This document shows positions 901 to 9,257 of a stretch of DNA of 9,382 bases, piece after piece (position 1 is the stretch's first letter; each line of letters begins with the position of its first letter). Both the position numbers and the translations under genes were made by a program. Below the pieces are notes generated by a model, which saw only the letters and a list, made by a program, of their open reading frames with translations, ran no database searches and had not been told where the DNA came from. The stretch is taken from IMG/VR virus record IMGVR_UViG_2740892235_000008. One strand, written 5' to 3'. Source of the DNA: a virus (lineage: Duplodnaviria > Heunggongvirae > Uroviricota > Caudoviricetes).

Positions 901-1137
901 TTTGCAGACATACGTCCCCTGGTTATTTCCGCCACGAATAACGTTAACTGGCTCTATATTGACCGAGTTGCAAATCTGCAACTCGCTTATTAAACGTTCA
1001 GTTTGCTCATTGCGGAGCCAGAATGCAGGCTTATGCTTATCCAGAGAACCGGCAGCCCTGTGCAGATCGTTCAGGCTGTAACGCCCATAAGCATCACGAC
1101 GAACTTCAATACCATCAATGACCATCAGATTATTCAT
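901..1137 (-). CDS. KilA-N-domain protein, second allele, N-terminal fragment bounded by gaps
   Basis: ATG at 1135-1137. Translation MNNLMVIDGIEVRRDAYGRYSLNDLHRAAGSLDKHKPAFWLRNEQ...GTYVCK: first 29 aa identical to the 1-688 gene, then divergent, then reconverging at GTYVCK. 1063-1140 nearly repeats 606-690. Confidence 0.5.
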
Positions 1138-1140
1138 ACT

Positions 1141-1150
1141 NNNNNNNNNN
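1141..1150. other. assembly gap (10 N)
   Basis: Run of n characters. Confidence 0.95.
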
Positions 1151-1297
1151 GCGTAACTGCTCAACTATTGCTGCACACGCCGCGCTCTGGAATTTGCGCC
1201 CCGCTGCGCTTATCAGGCTCTTACCAGCAAACGCCCCTTTGTTGGGGTGTCGCCAGTACGTGTTCACGCTGGGCGGAAAAGGCAGAATCAGCTTCAT
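1151..1297 (-). CDS. rusA: RusA N-terminal fragment, second allele
   Basis: ATG at 1295-1297, translation MKLILPFPPSVNTYWRHPNKGAFAGKSLISAAGRKFQSAACAAIVEQLR. Near-identical with SNPs to 1660-1801. Confidence 0.55.
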
Positions 1298-1503
1298 ACT
1301 TTCAGGCCCCTCTCATGTAACCAGTGGGCTGCACGCAGCCTGGCGTTTTCCTCACCGGCAAGCAGTGCGCGGATAATCCCGACCGCCTCGCTGTCGTCGT
1401 CCTTCACCGCGGTATGAAGCGTTATCCCCCGGGCCACGCCACGCTTTATCGTGATGACGCCTTTTTTCTCCAGTGCGCGAAGATGCTCCACCGCTGCATT
1501 CAC
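1294..1503 (-). CDS. LexA-DBD-like regulator, C-terminal fragment, second allele
   Basis: Translation VNAAVEHLRALEKKGVITIKRGVARGITLHTAVKDDDSEAVGIIRALLAGEENARLRAAHWLHERGLKV, stop 1294-1296 overlapping the RusA ATG (ATGA). SNP variant of 1798-2003. Confidence 0.5.
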   Translation of the reverse strand: MNAAVEHLRALEKKGVITIKRGVARGITLHTAVKDDDSEAVGIIRALLAGEENARLRAAHWLHERGLKV

Positions 1504-1513: not shown

Positions 1514-1801
1514 ACTGTCGTCTTCCCACACACCCGCGTGGGTCAGGGCGTCAAACAGTGCCTTGTTATAGTTGTCCAGATCGCGGATCCGGTTATCCGG
1601 AGGAAACAACACGATCTCCACTGAAGCAGGTGCCGACGTTGGTTTCGGCAGACGACGTAACTGCTCAACTATTGCTGTGCACGCCGCACTCTGGAATTTT
1701 CGCCCCGCCGCGCTTATCAGGCTCTTACCAGCAAATGCCCCTTTGTTGGGGTGTCGCCAGTAGGTGTTCACGCTGGGTGGAAAAGGCAGAATCAGCTTCA
1801 T
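1514..1801 (-). CDS. rusA: RusA Holliday-junction resolvase, N-terminal part (cut by gap)
   Basis: ATG 1799-1801; translation MKLILPFPPSVNTYWRH...VEIVLFPPDNRIRDLDNYNKALFDALTHAGVWEDDS. Start overlaps the upstream gene stop as ATGA, indicating translational coupling. Confidence 0.8.
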
Positions 1802-2124
1802 ACTTTCAGCCCCCTCTCATGTAACCAGTGGGCTGCACGCAGCCTGGCGTTTTCCTCACCAGCAAGCAGTGCGCGGATAATCCCGGCCACCTCGCTGTCG
1901 TCGTCCTTCACCGCGGTATGAAGCGTGATGCCCCGGGCCACGCCACGCTTTATCGTGATGACGCCTTTTTTCTCCAGTGCGCGAAGATGCTCCACCGCTG
2001 CATTCACTGAACGGTATCCCAGCATGGTAGCCACCTCCTGATTGGTTGGCGGGAAGCCACGTTCTTTCTGGTAAGAAATCAGCATATCCAGCACCTGCTG
2101 CTGGCATTGAGTTAACGTCGTCAT
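1798..2124 (-). CDS. LexA N-terminal DNA-binding-domain homolog (winged helix), no S24 peptidase domain, about 108 aa
   Basis: Translation from ATG 2122-2124: MTTLTQCQQQVLDMLISYQKERGFPPTNQEVATMLGYRSVNAAVEHLRALEKKGVITIKRGVARGITL..., which aligns closely to the remembered LexA DBD (…[65 protein letters not shown]). ATG overlaps the upstream stop (TAATG). The ORF-track start at 2157 is an unsupported upstream extension. Confidence 0.75.
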   Translation of the reverse strand: MTTLTQCQQQVLDMLISYQKERGFPPTNQEVATMLGYRSVNAAVEHLRALEKKGVITIKRGVARGITLHTAVKDDDSEVAGIIRALLAGEENARLRAAHWLHERGLKV

Positions 2125-2612
2125 TAAGCCCCCACGTAATTCCCTGACAGATACCACTCTTCACCCGATACAGCGCGCTTGCTGCTTTTCCGTAAACACC
2201 GCTCACGACGCGCAAGAAAATTGTTTCGCTCTTGCTGGGAGTGGCTTTCACGGAATGCCGCCATCCACACCGTTGCAGCACGACGGTATAAGCCCCTGGA
2301 CTCCAGTTCTTCCGCCTGGCGGGTCAGGCACAAAATCACCCGGGGATCGTTAGTGCCGACATAGAAATTGCGCACAGGTCTGGATTCACGAACTGGTTGC
2401 GGTTCCGGCTCCTGCGGTATCTCAGTCAGCCGCGGGAAATGTCTGCGTGTATCCCCTTCACAACGGTGAGCCACACGCCCACTCTGACGTAACTTGCTTG
2501 CTGACTGCAGAACGCGCTGTCGTGAGTAACCTGCAAAAGCATCCGCAATGTCTCCGGAAGTACACCCCGGATGGGCTTCAATGAATTTCTGAACGTCATT
2601 CAAAAGACTCAT
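2124..2612 (-). CDS. PerC/ANR-family-like regulator with an additional N-terminal domain, about 162 aa
   Basis: ATG 2610-2612 preceded by AGGGGG with about 5 nt spacing (GTG at 2616-2618 is the alternative). C-terminal LESRGLYRRAATVWMAAF...RRERCL matches the remembered PerC/Pch signature (GLWRRAA..W...RR..CL). Stop overlaps the next ATG. Confidence 0.5.
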   Translation of the reverse strand: MSLLNDVQKFIEAHPGCTSGDIADAFAGYSRQRVLQSASKLRQSGRVAHRCEGDTRRHFPRLTEIPQEPEPQPVRESRPVRNFYVGTNDPRVILCLTRQAEELESRGLYRRAATVWMAAFRESHSQQERNNFLARRERCLRKSSKRAVSGEEWYLSGNYVGA

Positions 2613-2614
2613 GA

Positions 2615-3794
2615 TCACCCCCTGAATCCTGCCGGGATCTGGCTGTAGTCCACATTGTCGTAACTGGCTTTGAAGTACGGGTCTTCGCGTTTTTCTGTGT
2701 ACGTGCTGACGGACGGCGATAAGCGCAGGGAAAGCTCATCCCATTTTTCCCGCAGCTTCGACGGGCTGAGCACGTTNNNNNNNNNNATTTGAAGTACGGG
2801 TCTTCGCGTTTTTCGGTGTACGTGCTGACGGACGGCGATAAGCGCAGGGAAAGCTCATCCCATTTTTCCCGCAGCTTCGACGGGCTGAGCACGTTACGGC
2901 ACCAGAACGGATCGCGGCTGACGCGGCTGTACATCTCGCAGATTTGTTTATGAGTACGACCATCCTGCACACACATCAGGCGAATTTCGTTTGCCCAGGC
3001 TGTCCAGTTCGGTTCTTTGGGACGAACCACCTCGCCGTCACATTCGGCAGCCTGCTCGTACAGGGCGATGATTTTTTTCCAGAACCACTGTGCGCAGGTC
3101 AAATCATCCTGCGTCCCCCACTGGCGTTTTTTAGGGCTGAATACAACCGCATCAGGATGGCGAGTTAAAAAATCCTGTTCAGCCGTCTGCGTGTCCGGTT
3201 GCGAAGAGTCCGGACGAGAAGGTTTTTTATCTGACGGATCATGTTTTGATTTTACTGACGGATCCCCGCCAGATTCTGACGGGTGAAAACCCGCTTTTTT
3301 GCCAGATTTCGACGCATCAAATTTTGACGGGTCAGATTTTGATGCGTCAGATTTTGACGGGTCAGAATCTGACAGTTGAGAAAATGCCGCTGCCTGAAGC
3401 TTCGCAACGTTAAGCTGATAAACATTCGACGCATTGCGGTTACCCTGGCGACGCGCCTTACGCGTTAACCAGCCTTCTGCTTCCAGCCGTGCGATAGCCG
3501 TTCTGACGGTACTCATCCCCGCGCCAATCTGGCGTGCAATGGTTTCAATCGATGGCCAGCACACACCTTCGTCATTACTGAAATCAGCCAGGCGGGCCAT
3601 AATTGCCACGCTGGATAATTTCATGCCTGANNNNNNNNNNAGCCAATCTGACGGGCAATGGTTTCAATTGATGGCCAGCACACACCTTCGTCATTACTGA
3701 AATCAGCCAGGCGGGCCATAATTGCCACGCTGGATAATTTCATGCCTGACGCTGCGCAACCATCCCATACATAGCCGGTTAATTTAGTGCTCAT
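2615..3794 (-). CDS. phage replication initiator, O-like (N-terminal wHTH, Ser/Asp/Lys-rich repeat linker, C-terminal domain); spans two scaffold joins with duplicated flanks
   Basis: ATG 3792-3794 with GAGG Shine-Dalgarno 7 nt upstream; translation MSTKLTGYVWDGCAASGMKLSSVAIMARLADFSNDEGVCWPSIETIARQIG... In-frame through segment 2787-3630. True stop TGA at 2615-2617 found by hand translation (…DPYFKASYDNVDYSQIPAGFRG). The ORF-track frame after the 2777-2786 gap is an artefact. Real gene length is shorter than the coordinate span because 2672-2776 / 2789-2896 and 3520-3630 / 3641-3751 are duplicated overlaps. Confidence 0.6.
2777..2786. other. assembly gap (10 N)
   Basis: Run of n characters; about 105 bp either side are near-identical direct repeats. 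Confidence 0.95.
3224..3377. repeat. iteron-like tandem array (15-bp period; consensus CAGATTTTGACGNGT; 5 contiguous copies at 3303-3377 plus degenerate copies at 3224-3284); candidate replication origin inside the initiator gene
   Basis: Direct reading: cagatttcgacgcat / caaattttgacgggt / cagattttgatgcgt / cagattttgacgggt / cagaatctgacagtt, plus cagattctgacgggt at 3270-3284 and two CTGACGGATC-containing units at 3224-3265. They encode the SDxSK pentapeptide repeats of the linker. Lambda ori iterons lie inside O in the same way (established knowledge). Confidence 0.5.
3631..3640. other. assembly gap (10 N)
   Basis: Run of n characters; 3520-3630 and 3641-3751 are near-identical with 3 SNPs. 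Confidence 0.95.
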
Positions 3795-3803
3795 GACCGA
3801 CCT

Positions 3804-4142
3804 CTATTTCCCTGAATTTACGACGAAACTGTTCGAGCGGGCTGAAGCACTCATGCTCATAGCCTTCGCGGAGGTAGATAACACGTTGTGTTTCCGGCTC
3901 CCAACGAATGACTCTGACGGGCACTCCGTAGTGATCTTTGAACCAGCGGTTAACTTGTCGCAAAGGACTGTCTCCTTCTGCCGGTTGAAATCACCCACAG
4001 CCCACTCTGCAAAGCTGTGGGTTACAATTTCCCTGTCACCTGGTACATTTACTGCATAGCAATACTCCACCTTCGCTTTTCCACCCGGTACAGGAAGCGC
4101 AATCAGTTGCGAGCGACGGTAGTGTGTTGTTAAACTGTTCAT
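3804..4142 (-). CDS. hypothetical protein (112 aa) between cII-like and replication genes
   Basis: ORF-track ORF; ATG 4140-4142 overlaps the upstream stop as ATGA; stop is 9 nt before the replication gene ATG. Same strand as the whole operon. No recognisable family. Confidence 0.4.
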
Positions 4143-4690
4143 GCGTTAGTTTCTCCACAGTCACGACACGCCACGGCGCCCGGAGCTGCACACTCGCGGG
4201 CGTCACTACTTTCTGAAACGCAAAAGATTTTGTAGACCAGTGCTGCATGCTCCTGCAGCTTCGAAATTGAGAGGTACAGCTCATCGTTAATTGCTGTCTT
4301 CTCATGCGGTTCCACTACACCGTCTTCAATTGCTGAACGAATCTGTTTTGAATAACTGCCGATCTGTTCAATGACCTCCAGCAGGCGTTGGTTGATATCG
4401 GCGTTGTCCACATCCTCGACATCAGGAAGAGACACAAAGACGCCATTTGCAGACTGCGCCACAGCGTCAGCAATGAAGTGAGTTCCACCAGCACGTTGCA
4501 AAATCATTGCCCATCCCAGCGGGAAAATCTGATCGCCATCGGCACGAAGGCGGTTAAATAATGCGTTCTCTGTTACATCCAGCCAGTCAGCAGCTTCAGC
4601 GTACCCCCCCGGCAACGCTGCGATAGTTTTTCTGACAGCTTTCACGTACCACTCAGGCTGTTTTTCTACTTTCCAGTGATGCTTACCCAC
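4139..4690 (-). CDS. cII-like early regulator (HTH-containing, 183 aa)
   Basis: GTG start 4688-4690 preceded by a perfect AGGAGG with 6 nt spacing. Sits immediately downstream of the cro-like gene. Remote cII-like HTH pattern in …[19 protein letters not shown]. Function inferred from position and weak pattern. Confidence 0.55.
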
Positions 4691-4943
4691 GGTTCACCTC
4701 CTGTTCCTGTGGTTTAAACCCATTCTGGTTTTGGCTAGATTGAAAACGTGCCGGATAAAGAATCTGCATTTCGCTGACTTCACCCTTAAAAAAATTGGCT
4801 AAACGTTCTGCAAGCTCGATAGATGGAATCTGCTCCAGCCTCTCAATACGACTCAACGTCGCTGGATTGACTTGAACACCCGCAGCAACATGCTGCAAAG
4901 TGAAACCATGCGCCTTACGCACATTTCGTAATGGTGATTGCAT
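4683..4943 (-). CDS. cro: Cro-like XRE-family HTH repressor (86 aa), immunity module 1
   Basis: ATG 4941-4943 with GGAGGG Shine-Dalgarno; translation MQSPLRNVRKAHGFTLQHVAAGVQVNPATLSRIERLEQIPSIELAERLANFF is a typical HTH_3 fold. Divergent from the cI-like gene across a 97-bp operator region. Confidence 0.7.
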   Translation of the reverse strand: MQSPLRNVRKAHGFTLQHVAAGVQVNPATLSRIERLEQIPSIELAERLANFFKGEVSEMQILYPARFQSSQNQNGFKPQEQEVNRG

Positions 4944-5040
4944 ATGCCCTCCAAATATTGCGCGTTATGCATGTTATTTCACGCAATTATTTTGCGCAAG
5001 TTGATTTGCTTATCACGCAATAAAGAAATGTAATAAACGC
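4944..5040. promoter_or_regulatory. divergent promoter/operator region (OR/PR/PRM-like) of immunity module 1
   Basis: Between divergent cro-like and cI-like starts. Contains dyad TTGCTTATCACGCAA (5006-5020), a weaker TTGCGCGTTATGCAT (4958-4972) and the palindrome CGCAATTATTTTGCG (4982-4996). Possible PR toward cro: -35 TTGCGC, -10 TAACAT read on the minus strand. Confidence 0.55.
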
Positions 5041-5733
5041 ATGAACATAGGAAACCGAGTCAGACAACTTCGCCAAGCGAAGAACATGAAAATCGCCGAT
5101 CTCGCTGAAGCGATAGGAGTAGATGCGGCGAACATCTCGCGCTTAGAAACGGGTAAGCAAAAACAATTTACCGAACAAACACTGAGTAATATTGCCAGGA
5201 GCTTAGGTGTTGATATTGCTGATCTCTTTACCTCTGCCCACAAAAGTAATACTGTATATAAAAACAGTAATAATGAGGATGTTGCGCAGGTGAAGGATGT
5301 GTTCCGTATTGAAATGCTGGATATCAGTGCCAGTGCGGGAAATGGCCTTATCCAGGGCGGTGATGTCATTGATGTGATTCATGCCATCGAATACAGAACT
5401 GATAATGCTGTATCAATGTTCGGCGGACGACCAGCCAATCACATCAAAGTTATCAACGTTCGTGGGGACAGTATGTGTCCAACCATTGAGCCCGGAGATC
5501 TCATCTTCGTTGATGTCAGCATCAATCAGTTTGATGGTGATGGTATATATGTCTTTGGTTTTGATGACAAAATATACGTTAAAAGACTTCAAATGATTCC
5601 TGACAAACTGCTGGTGATTTCTGATAACCAGATTTACCGTGAATGGGGAATTACTAGCGAAAACGAACACCGATTCATGGTCTTTGGAAAGGTCTTAATC
5701 AGTCAGTCGCAAACCCTTAAGAGACATAATTAA
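5041..5733 (+). CDS. cI: CI-like phage repressor (N-terminal XRE HTH, C-terminal S24/LexA-type autopeptidase), 230 aa
   Basis: Translation has HTH (VRQLRQAKNMKIADLAEAIGVDAANISRLETGK), a candidate Ala-Gly cleavage site (ASAGNG) and the S24 catalytic motifs GDSM … KRL. Stop TAA 5731-5733. Confidence 0.9.
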   Translation: MNIGNRVRQLRQAKNMKIADLAEAIGVDAANISRLETGKQKQFTEQTLSNIARSLGVDIADLFTSAHKSNTVYKNSNNEDVAQVKDVFRIEMLDISASAGNGLIQGGDVIDVIHAIEYRTDNAVSMFGGRPANHIKVINVRGDSMCPTIEPGDLIFVDVSINQFDGDGIYVFGFDDKIYVKRLQMIPDKLLVISDNQIYREWGITSENEHRFMVFGKVLISQSQTLKRHN

Positions 5734-6689: not shown

Positions 6690-6803
6690 AAAGGATACCA
6701 CCGAGCCTGAAGTGGTGAAAAGACAGGCACATAACAGCTAAGTATTTTCAACCAGAGAGAATCCTTAGCGTTGTGGTGAATGCGGCTCAGCGCACGCGGG
6801 TTA
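6690..6803. repeat. conserved right-flank element, copy A (6725-6803 identical to 8930-9008; 6690-6724 similar with SNPs to 8896-8929)
   Basis: Direct comparison of the two stretches; copy A is truncated by the gap at 6804. Confidence 0.6.
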
Positions 6804-6813
6804 NNNNNNNNNN
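6804..6813. other. assembly gap (10 N)
   Basis: Run of n characters. Confidence 0.95.
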
Positions 6814-7128
6814 TTCCAGCAGGCGTTGGTTGATATCGGCGTTGTCCACATCCTCGACGTCAGGAAGAGACACAAAGACGCCATTTGCAGACTGCGCCAC
6901 TGCGTCAGCAATGAAGTGAGTTCCACCAGCACGTTGCAAAATCATTGCCCATCCCAGCGGGAAAATCTGATCGCCATCGGCACGAAGGCGGTTAAATAAT
7001 GCGTTCTCTGTTACATCCAGCCAGTCAGCTGCTTCAGCGTAACCACCCGGCAACTTTGCGATAGTTTTTCTGACAGCTTTCACGTACCACTCAGGCTGTT
7101 TTTCTACTTTCCAGTGATGCTTACCCAC
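6814..7128 (-). CDS. cII-like regulator, second copy, N-terminal part (3' end cut by gap)
   Basis: GTG 7126-7128 with GAGG Shine-Dalgarno 6 nt upstream; translation nearly identical to 4139-4690 (one A to K change seen). 6814-7128 repeats 4376-4690. Confidence 0.55.
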
Positions 7129-7165
7129 GGTTAGCCTCATCGTTCTGTGGTTTCTGTTAATCGAT

Positions 7166-7366
7166 TTATCCATTAGATTTTTCATAAAGCTCAGGTTTAA
7201 ATGGCAACCGTCCGCAAGTTCTATATGCAGCTTCTGCTGCACGTCCTTTTGGAATTAACTGGCCCGGACGGTTTCGCCACTGATAAACGGCTTCAGTTGT
7301 TATGCCGAAAAAAGCAGCAACTTTCTCAATACTGCCGAAGTAGCTTTCGATATCGTCAGTTGTCAT
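7166..7366 (-). CDS. cro: Cro-like small HTH protein (66 aa), immunity module 2
   Basis: ATG 7364-7366 preceded by TTTGGAGGGCGT, the same leader as cro-1. Translation …SIEKVAAFFGITTEAVYQWRNRPGQLIPKGRAAEAAY is a Cro/YdaS-type HTH pattern. Divergent from cI-2. Confidence 0.65.
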   Translation of the reverse strand: MTTDDIESYFGSIEKVAAFFGITTEAVYQWRNRPGQLIPKGRAAEAAYRTCGRLPFKPELYEKSNG

Positions 7367-7463
7367 ACGCCCTCCAAACTAAGTTTTGTTAGATGCTAAT
7401 TACAAATCTATCTTTGGTCAATAAAAACTAAGATTACTTAGCAATTAAAGAAATGGTGCTCCT
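7367..7463. promoter_or_regulatory. divergent promoter/operator region of immunity module 2
   Basis: Contains 14-bp dyads CTAAGTTTTGTTAG (7379-7392) and CTAAGATTACTTAG (7428-7441); consensus CTAAG-N4-sTTAG, unrelated to the module 1 operator motif. Confidence 0.5.
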
Positions 7464-8090
7464 ATGGAAACGGTTGGTCAGCGTATAAAAGCTCTGAGAA
7501 GAGTTACCAGAACGTCCCAGAAAGAATTGGGTAAATTTTGTGGAGTAAGCGACGTTGCTGTGGGGTACTGGGAGAAAGACATCAATACCCCTGGCGGGGA
7601 GGCACTTTCGAAATTAGCGAAGTTCTTCAATACGTCAATAGATTACATTCTTTATGGTGCTGAGTTTGAAGGCAAACTCGTCACAAACATGCGCAGAGTT
7701 CCTGTAATATCGTGGGTTCAGGCTGGGCAGTTTACTGAGTGCAGGGCAGCAGAAGTGTTTAGTGAAGTGGACAAGTGGGTAGATACATCATTAAAGGTTG
7801 GTGATAACTCATTTGCATTAGAGGTTAAAGGTGACTCCATGACTAACCCTAATGGCCTCCCAACAATACCAGAAGGCGCAACAGTGATTGTAGATCCAGA
7901 TGCAGAACCTCGTCATGGAAAAATAGTCATCGCTCGACTTGATGGAACAAACGAAGCTACAGTAAAAAAATTAGTCATCGATGGCCCTCAAAAGTTTTTA
8001 GTGCCATTAAATCCTCGGTATCCCAACATCCCTATCAATGGTAATTGCCTTATCATTGGTGTAGTCAAAGGAGTTCAATACGAACTCTAA
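7464..8090 (+). CDS. cI: CI-like phage repressor 2 (HTH plus S24 autopeptidase), 208 aa
   Basis: Translation has HTH (IKALRRVTRTSQKELGKFCGVSDVAVGYWEKD) and the S24 motifs GDSM … KKL. Sequence is unrelated to cI-1 apart from fold-level motifs. Confidence 0.9.
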   Translation: METVGQRIKALRRVTRTSQKELGKFCGVSDVAVGYWEKDINTPGGEALSKLAKFFNTSIDYILYGAEFEGKLVTNMRRVPVISWVQAGQFTECRAAEVFSEVDKWVDTSLKVGDNSFALEVKGDSMTNPNGLPTIPEGATVIVDPDAEPRHGKIVIARLDGTNEATVKKLVIDGPQKFLVPLNPRYPNIPINGNCLIIGVVKGVQYEL

Positions 8091-9247: not shown

Positions 9248-9257
9248 NNNNNNNNNN
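9248..9257. other. assembly gap (10 N)
   Basis: Run of n characters; 9119-9247 and 9258-9382 are near-identical. Confidence 0.95.

Follow-up and report, generated by a model that had tools for sequence, protein, structure and literature searches.

A LexA DNA-binding domain without the autopeptidase in the early operon of SfII/SfV-type lambdoid prophages: a candidate RecA-insensitive surrogate of LexA

In Escherichia coli, the induction of prophages and the release of Shiga toxin are under the control of the SOS response, as are mutagenesis and tolerance to antibiotics. The residues through which LexA contacts bases are reported to be S39, N41, A42, E44 and E45 (PMC3091678). The truncated LexA homologue gp6 of phage GIL01, which consists of the DNA-binding domain (DBD) only, activates the late promoter P3, with K38 being essential, and binds its own palindrome, GaCACAnnTGTGaC (PMC6182141); it is the only characterized phage LexA homologue, and one that gained a new target and became an activator. 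Here we consider a 108-residue protein encoded in a record of a tailed phage, IMGVR_UViG_2740892235_000008 (Caudoviricetes), of which we analyzed a stretch of 9,382 nucleotides, hereafter the window. This protein, which we call the LexA-DBD protein, combines a LexA winged helix with a conserved tail and lacks the S24 peptidase domain, and we tentatively read it as a form of LexA that would keep its operators and escape its switch.

The DBD assignment is firm. The original prediction, made by eye, had proposed a LexA winged helix of about 70 residues, roughly half identical to LexA and severed from the autopeptidase, and had named a profile search as the way to check it; each of these points held. 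The Pfam profile LexA_DNA_bind (PF01726) matches residues 1-65 over all 65 of its 65 positions (E = 2.9e-19), and a gap-free alignment to residues 2-70 of E. coli LexA (PDB 1LEA, 1JHH and 3JSO; E ~1e-15) goes along with identity at 35 of 70 positions. The AlphaFold2 model (predicted local distance difference test score, pLDDT, 77.5) shows the three helices and two-strand wing of the LexA N-terminal domain, and its best structural match is the LexA–DNA complex 3JSO, at a root-mean-square deviation of 1.1 Å over 68 columns. The chain ends at residue 108 without a Peptidase_S24 match, in the same scan that detects S24 in the neighboring cI. Against the LexA repressor equivalog TIGR00498 it scores 67.4 bits, with the cut-off at 110.95, and covers profile positions 1-91 only. 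Residues A88-G89 (in LLAGEE) fall near the equivalent of the LexA self-cleavage site, but are AN, AK or VG in close relatives and have no counterpart in distant ones. Given the missing S24 domain, the sub-cut-off equivalog score and the unconserved Ala-Gly, the protein is not a LexA orthologue. Trans-cleavage of the tail at this Ala-Gly by host LexA, UmuD or CI was considered and rejected, because the dipeptide is not conserved even among close relatives. Interference with LexA had been suggested; through mixed dimers it is excluded, since LexA dimerizes via the very domain that is missing here. A search of an anti-phage defense library gave no meaningful match.

What sets this family apart from a bare fragment of LexA is its conservation, both in the DNA-reading surface and in the C-terminus. 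An exhaustive profile-free search recovered eight relatives, 39-52% identical and alignable from end to end (P0122, P0125, P0127, P0132, P0138, P0168, P0191 and P0212), and the length of the open reading frame (ORF) stays at 106-112 amino acids down to 39% identity in nine enterobacterial genera (Escherichia/Shigella, Citrobacter, Salmonella, Hafnia, Cronobacter, Kosakonia, Enterobacter, Cedecea and Klebsiella). The window protein keeps four of the five base-contact residues of LexA (S39, N41, A42 and E45), with E44 replaced by V; across the family alignment S39 is invariant, N41 nearly so, and A42 and E45 are mostly retained. The family-invariant positions of the DBD (L4, Q8, V11, P25, P26, E30, A32, S39, L50, K53, I56, R64, G65 and I66, in proteins of 39-87% identity) are all identical in E. 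coli LexA. Past the wing, the AlphaFold2 model has a low-confidence linker (residues 69-74) followed by helices at 75-87 and 91-103. The original prediction had taken this C-terminus to be short and unrelated; it is instead a family module of two amphipathic helices, conserved in relatives down to ~40% identity, whose consensus IIRALLxGEExARxRAxxWLxxRG is kept at 39-47% identity with A97 and L101 invariant. The match to the PHROGs family phrog_362 (7e-58; residues 1-108 on profile positions 1-106 of 106) includes the tail. Judging from the modeled helices, the tail probably replaces the missing dimerization domain of LexA and pairs two copies of the protein.

Several related arrangements came to light alongside this family. 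Metagenomic proteins of 140-350 amino acids carry a tandem double LexA DBD and no S24 domain (P0129, P0130, P0146, P0150-P0153, P0157-P0160, P0164, P0180, P0188 and P0213; the tandem arrangement was read in P0129 and P0152 only), and these look like single-chain pseudo-dimers that supply two recognition helices without S24. The LexA-DBD frame is also found fused, to the PerC-like frame in locus L003 (9512-10327; 271 amino acids) and to an HTH_36-type upstream protein in P0001 (188 amino acids), while P0121 (217 amino acids) has an N-terminal extension; the fused ORFs are either frameshift variants or sequencing errors. A scan of species genomes with a generic recognition-helix pattern returned 80 loci that are real lexA genes and thus uninformative on the short family, and the three among them that aligned to residue 102-108 (L120, L160 and L163) turned out to be full-length LexA of 203-259 amino acids with no RusA nearby.

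What surrounds the gene is an early-right operon, that of an SfII/SfV-type lambdoid prophage. Of the named phages, Shigella phage SfII comes closest, with a cI that is 99.3% identical and the same gene order; in E. coli NCTC86, a copy free of gaps runs on past RusA into KilA-N, DUF968, Q and the lysis genes. Between cro and RusA, a scan found neither a minus-strand terminator nor a consensus promoter, and thus no internal consensus promoter for the LexA-DBD gene; the window does contain the sequence that is annotated in SfV as a putative promoter of dam, but this is weak (TTGCGC ... TACGGA). The LexA-DBD gene is therefore probably expressed only while the early operon is open, which from its position in that operon would be after loss of the phage repressor or after infection.

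Phages that carry the gene also tend to carry SOS boxes. We defined a strong box as CTGT, an 8-base spacer with at least 6 of 8 A/T, and ACAG, and compared 80 loci bearing the LexA-DBD gene with two control sets of lambdoid loci, 80 centered on DLP12-type RusA and 80 on lambda NinG. Strong boxes occur in 41 of the 80 gene-bearing loci, as four site families, as compared with one of 80 and none of 80 in the respective controls; at most one distinct strong box per set is expected by chance. An unbiased palindrome search did not yield a phage operator common to all loci, and the only palindrome shared across divergent loci outside homologous coding sequence was ACTGT-N8-ACAGT. At the individual sites, a consensus SOS box, TACTGTAAAAATAAACAGTG, spans codons 3-9 in the gene for a DNA methyltransferase (SfV orf48) that lies downstream of Q, as at L027:14038-14057, in SfV itself (L002, 402-421) and in ~26 of the 80 loci L003-L082. 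Another, TACTGTATTTATGAACAGTG, lies in a 150-bp intergenic region that separates RusA from a KilA-N-type gene, immediately downstream of the LexA-DBD/RusA pair (L003:10765-10784 and L053:10765-10784). In an Enterobacter/Cedecea locus (L090:2863-5408) that encodes the 41% identical relative P0138, the gene is preceded by a minus-strand pair of an RNase_A_bac toxin and a CdiI_2-like protein, and an SOS-like box, ACCTGTACATTCATACAGTA, stands at 4560, a short way upstream of the LexA-DBD cluster; in that phage, control of the gene by LexA or by its own product is possible.

The window itself contains one perfect CTGT-N8-ACAG, TACTGTATATAAAAACAGTA, which is identical to the K-12 umuDC operator at 20 of 20 positions and which lies within the linker-coding part of cI. 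A look for SOS-box-like sequences in the prophage itself had been among the checks proposed at the outset, and this copy is what it produced. Phage SfII has this same cI allele, which is present in 1040 of 5426 complete E. coli genomes; across nine of its haplotypes both arms of the box are invariant, whereas the spacer and both flanks vary, so that the arms appear to be under selection. The box sits on a promoter-like arrangement, TTTACC, 17 bp, TACTGT, ahead of a Shine-Dalgarno sequence (GAGGA) and, 20 nt past the box, a GTG in frame (position 5290). In K-12 the sequence directly ahead of umuD has a parallel layout, with a promoter TTGATC, 17 bp, TACTGT and the umuD ATG 19 nt after the umuDC operator box. 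An SOS-controlled internal start in cI, which would give an S24-only CI fragment of 147 amino acids, is a possibility suggested by this layout, and we offer it as a lead, not a result.

Considering these features together, we favor, tentatively and at somewhat short of an even chance, the view that the LexA-DBD protein is a RecA-insensitive surrogate of LexA that issues from the early operon and acts at SOS-type operators. The view starts from what is observed, namely the domain identity, the fold, the loss of the protease, the residue conservation, the position in the operon, and the presence and enrichment of SOS boxes; from there we infer dimerization through the tail, specificity for SOS boxes, repression as the outcome, and the timing of expression. 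Upon loss of the phage repressor, or upon infection, the early-right operon would be switched on and, in the order cro, cII-like, replication, PerC, LexA-DBD, RusA, KilA-N, DUF968 and Q, the LexA-DBD protein would be made among its products. The C-terminal helical hairpin would then pair two copies. Having no S24 domain, the protein would be unable to cleave itself, and hence would bind operators of the CTGT-N8-ACAG type while host LexA is being destroyed by activated RecA. Candidate targets on the phage are the boxes inside cI, upstream of the KilA-N gene and at the start of the methyltransferase gene, with host SOS promoters as probable further targets. Occupancy of SOS boxes by this protein, as the original prediction had proposed, is plausible and draws indirect support from the base-contact residues that it retains and from the enrichment of SOS boxes in phages that carry the gene. 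We prefer this account on the grounds of the LexA-like recognition helix and its contrast with that of gp6, the conserved and putatively dimerizing tail, the early-operon timing and the phage-borne SOS boxes.

A number of observations weigh against it. Position 44 is never Glu in the family (V, T, F, A, L or Y), and P40 is replaced by V, so that the binding specificity may differ from that of LexA. The geometry imposed on a dimer by the new tail might also mismatch the spacing of SOS boxes. The box-bearing cI and methyltransferase modules are missing from both control sets, and the enrichment of SOS boxes is therefore inseparable from shared lineage; moreover, no box is common to all loci, and L001, L085-89 and L091-92 have none. 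Finally, gp6 is a precedent for truncated LexA homologues that are activators with new targets.

The neighborhood of the gene bears on the alternatives. Both overlaps noted in the original prediction, TAATG with the upstream PerC-like gene and ATGA with the downstream RusA gene, can be read directly in the sequence, and the latter, 4-bp type recurs in the relatives L084, L085-88 and L091-92. However, K-12 DLP12 ybcO/rusA shows the identical four-base overlap; such overlaps are generic in this operon type, and the weight placed on translational coupling was not borne out. The PerC-like partner, which had been taken to suggest host-directed regulation, likewise carries little weight. The upstream 162-residue protein does match Pfam PerC (9.1e-10, residues 98-150; 39.1 bits, with the gathering cut-off at 22.6), its match to NCBIfam ANR_neg_reg being weak (24 bits, below the cut-off of 32), but among 80 close-relative loci taken from viral contigs the upstream gene is dam in 47, PerC in 32 and another gene in one. 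In five distant lineages the slot is taken by a replication protein or by a DNA methyltransferase, of which there are several kinds; PerC is missing in four of the five (39-47% identity), and the fifth has a weak match of 78 amino acids beyond a dam gene. The same Shine-Dalgarno and TAATG junction, GGGGGCTTAATG, stands before the LexA-DBD gene in the window (2122-2126) and before dam in SfV (L002 4975-4979), so dam acts as a cassette with exact boundaries between the PerC-like and LexA-DBD genes. The window copy is without this cassette, which precedes the LexA-DBD gene in SfV, SfII and mEp460. The conserved neighbor is RusA, not PerC: it is directly downstream in all 80 close relatives and is the next gene, or the next but one, in the five distant lineages. 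The linkage to RusA is real.

Among the alternatives, an unlikely but serious one is a phage-specific regulator in the manner of gp6, in which the LexA domain would have drifted to a private operator and would switch phage promoters, for example to time middle or late genes, with no role at SOS boxes. The example of gp6, a DBD-only product of an early gene that activates late P3 from its own palindrome, speaks for it, as do the departures from LexA at positions 40 and 44 and the lack of a box shared by all loci. Yet S39, N41, A42 and E45 remain LexA-like across ~60% divergence, whereas gp6 changed four of its five contacts; position 44 varies too freely to look like a new specific contact; and the palindrome search of divergent loci offered no alternative shared inverted repeat outside homologous coding sequence. 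The constant company of RusA, usually with a 4-bp overlap, together with near-equal counts in E. coli genomes (2855 places for the gene and 2977 for RusA), would instead fit an accessory of the recombination module, a DNA-binding aid that, for example, loads or restrains the Holliday-junction resolvase on phage DNA. We consider this improbable. RusA is 70-80% identical where its LexA-DBD partner is 40-48% identical, and so the two do not co-diverge; L090 has a different RusA subtype, and L089 and L090 have another ORF in between; the RusA of DLP12 does its work with no partner of this sort, and the gene that it overlaps in like manner is unrelated. The idea explains the synteny and nothing else, and a winged-helix partner of RusA would, to our knowledge, be the first of its kind.

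It is also conceivable, if decidedly improbable, that a weak and mostly monomeric binder of half-sites competes with host LexA at operators without repressing, thereby raising the SOS response and prophage induction. Retained recognition residues on a protein stripped of the dimerization domain of LexA would suit such a de-repressor. The conserved amphipathic tail, however, argues for self-association, a promoter overlapped by an occupied operator is normally repressed, and expression only after the phage repressor has gone would come when host LexA is already being cleaved. As for a functionless, decaying fragment of lexA, the protein does resemble a truncated host gene, and frameshifted or fused copies exist (P0001, P0121 and L003), but this reading is already contradicted by the conservation pattern seen in the alignments and is scarcely credible: the ORF is intact and of constant length across nine genera down to 39% identity, its tail and recognition helix are conserved, and its position is fixed.

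If the surrogate account is joined to the box inside cI, a larger and rather doubtful scheme can be drawn, in which SfII/SfV-type prophages, found in ~40% of E. coli genomes, would operate a circuit of two layers tied into the SOS response. In the first layer, host LexA would keep the phage-borne SOS boxes closed, including the umuDC-identical box in cI, and cleavage of LexA could then release a CI fragment with only the protease domain that poisons repressor dimers. In the second, the uncleavable phage copy of LexA would shut the phage boxes again, and with them the host SOS regulon, before RecA activity has ceased. The cell would thus be committed to phage production, with SOS-controlled rivals (other prophages, colicins and toxins) silenced. 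Apart from this scheme, if prophages in ~40% of strains, Stx2 (Shiga toxin 2)-converting phages among them, make a copy of LexA that RecA cannot remove, they could reshape the SOS response of their hosts and, while growing lytically, alter how far co-resident prophages are induced. Such a protein would moreover lend itself to use as a natural tool, being a binder of the LexA type that DNA damage does not affect.

The gene itself is no new object, being very common and having been named already by homology. By itself it is present in 2233 of the 5426 complete E. coli genomes (~41%), at 2855 places; the 815-bp block that runs from the PerC-like gene to the RusA overlap is found in 2681 of the 5426, and RusA at 2977 places. 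It further occurs in 50 phage records, including SfV (orf42), SfII, mEp460 and Stx2a- and Stx2c-converting phages; SfV orf42, SfII_44 and the mEp460 "LexA DNA binding domain protein" belong to the same family, at 96-98% DNA identity to the window gene. In RefSeq this ORF is WP_000210176.1, "LexA family transcriptional regulator", and phrog_362 (106 positions) is labeled "transcriptional repressor". These names, in RefSeq, PHROG 362 and the phage annotations alike, rest on homology. In the published literature we found no experiment on the lambdoid short LexA-DBD protein and no paper on an SOS box inside cI.

The remaining features of the window are collected in the table below. The window is not continuous sequence but a scaffold with seven runs of exactly ten N, whose flanking pieces repeat one another with small differences (RusA, LexA-DBD, the replication gene and the YmfL-like gene), and which is therefore a scaffold of collapsed prophage alleles. 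Adjacency across the gaps is not guaranteed; the LexA-DBD gene and the overlaps under study lie wholly within the gap-free piece 1514-2776. The RusA gene, interrupted by a gap in the window, has an intact allele of 129 amino acids in L001. A second, different immunity region occupies 6787-8090 in another piece of the scaffold and presumably stems from a further prophage in this genome.

Table. Features of the 9,382-base window, in window coordinates (HTH, helix-turn-helix)
Feature	Position	Strand	Basis or remark
Ten-N gaps	891-900, 1141-1150, 1504-1513, 2777-2786, 3631-3640, 6804-6813, 9248-9257		
RusA fragments	708-935 and 1130-1297		ORF list
Second, partial LexA-DBD allele (C-terminal 69 amino acids)	1294-1503	-	ORF list and gap map; neighboring scaffold piece
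RusA gene, 5' part	1514-1801	-	Pfam RusA 1.8e-10; interrupted by gap 1504-1513
ATGA, LexA-DBD stop / RusA start overlap	1798-1801	-	Read directly
LexA-DBD-only gene, 108 amino acids (stop codon included)	1798-2124	-	Translation, Pfam, PDB LexA matches, PHROG 362, RefSeq
Two-helix tail codons (residues 75-103), proposed dimerization module	1816-1902	-	AlphaFold2 helices, pLDDT ~80
Recognition-helix codons S39-V-N-A-A-V-E-H46	1987-2010	-	Read from sequence and translation
TAATG, PerC-like stop / LexA-DBD start overlap	2122-2126	-	Read directly; GGGGG Shine-Dalgarno in front
PerC/YfdN-like gene, 162 amino acids	2124-2612	-	Pfam PerC, PHROG 1324; RefSeq name yfdN
HTH_36 replication-type protein	2596-3624	-	
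DUF4222	3784-3963	-	
CII/YmfL-like	4139-4690	-	
cro-like HTH	4683-4943	-	
cI-cro intergenic region	4944-5040		Presumed early-right promoter for cro through RusA; placed by gene order
cI-like HTH+S24 repressor, divergent	5041-5733	+	
SOS box TACTGTATATAAAAACAGTA inside cI-like gene	5250-5269		Candidate phage-borne target; one perfect CTGT-N8-ACAG in window
Second immunity region: CII/YmfL-like	6787-7242		
Second immunity region: small cro-like gene	7166-7366		
Second immunity region: HTH+S24-type repressor	7464-8090		

Set beside E. coli LexA, the phage protein shares the winged-helix fold, 50% identity over residues 1-70 without gaps, the S-x-N-A-A-x-E-H recognition helix and the R64-G65-I66 wing. 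It differs in that E44 and P40 are both V, in that its own two-helix tail takes the place of the S24 peptidase/dimerization domain with the catalytic Ser/Lys pair, and in that it is encoded inside an early operon, whereas LexA is autoregulated behind its own SOS boxes. The non-cleavable Ind- mutants of LexA and its N-terminal cleavage fragment are likewise LexA DBDs beyond inactivation by activated RecA, and Kim and Little are said to have found in 1992 that the isolated N-terminal fragment still binds operators specifically; unlike these, the phage protein is the product of a natural phage-borne gene with a putative dimerization surface of its own. With GIL01 gp6 it has in common that it is a protease-less LexA DBD encoded in the early operon of an SOS-responsive temperate phage. 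The gp6 protein, however, comes from a Bacillus tectivirus, the lambdoid protein from tailed enterobacterial phages; gp6 has 66 amino acids and no tail, the lambdoid protein a conserved one; and where the recognition helix of gp6, SHKTAHRY, departs from the SPNAAEEH of LexA at four of five contact positions, with K38 at the position of N41, the lambdoid SVNAAVEH is LexA-like and keeps four of the five. BLASTP of the window protein against gp6 gave no alignment at E<=100, which indicates an independent capture of the LexA domain; by these comparisons the lambdoid protein can be regarded as another truncated LexA of phage origin, one that stands outside the gp6 family. The lambdoid family looks like the opposite outcome to gp6, one in which the target was kept and the switch removed.

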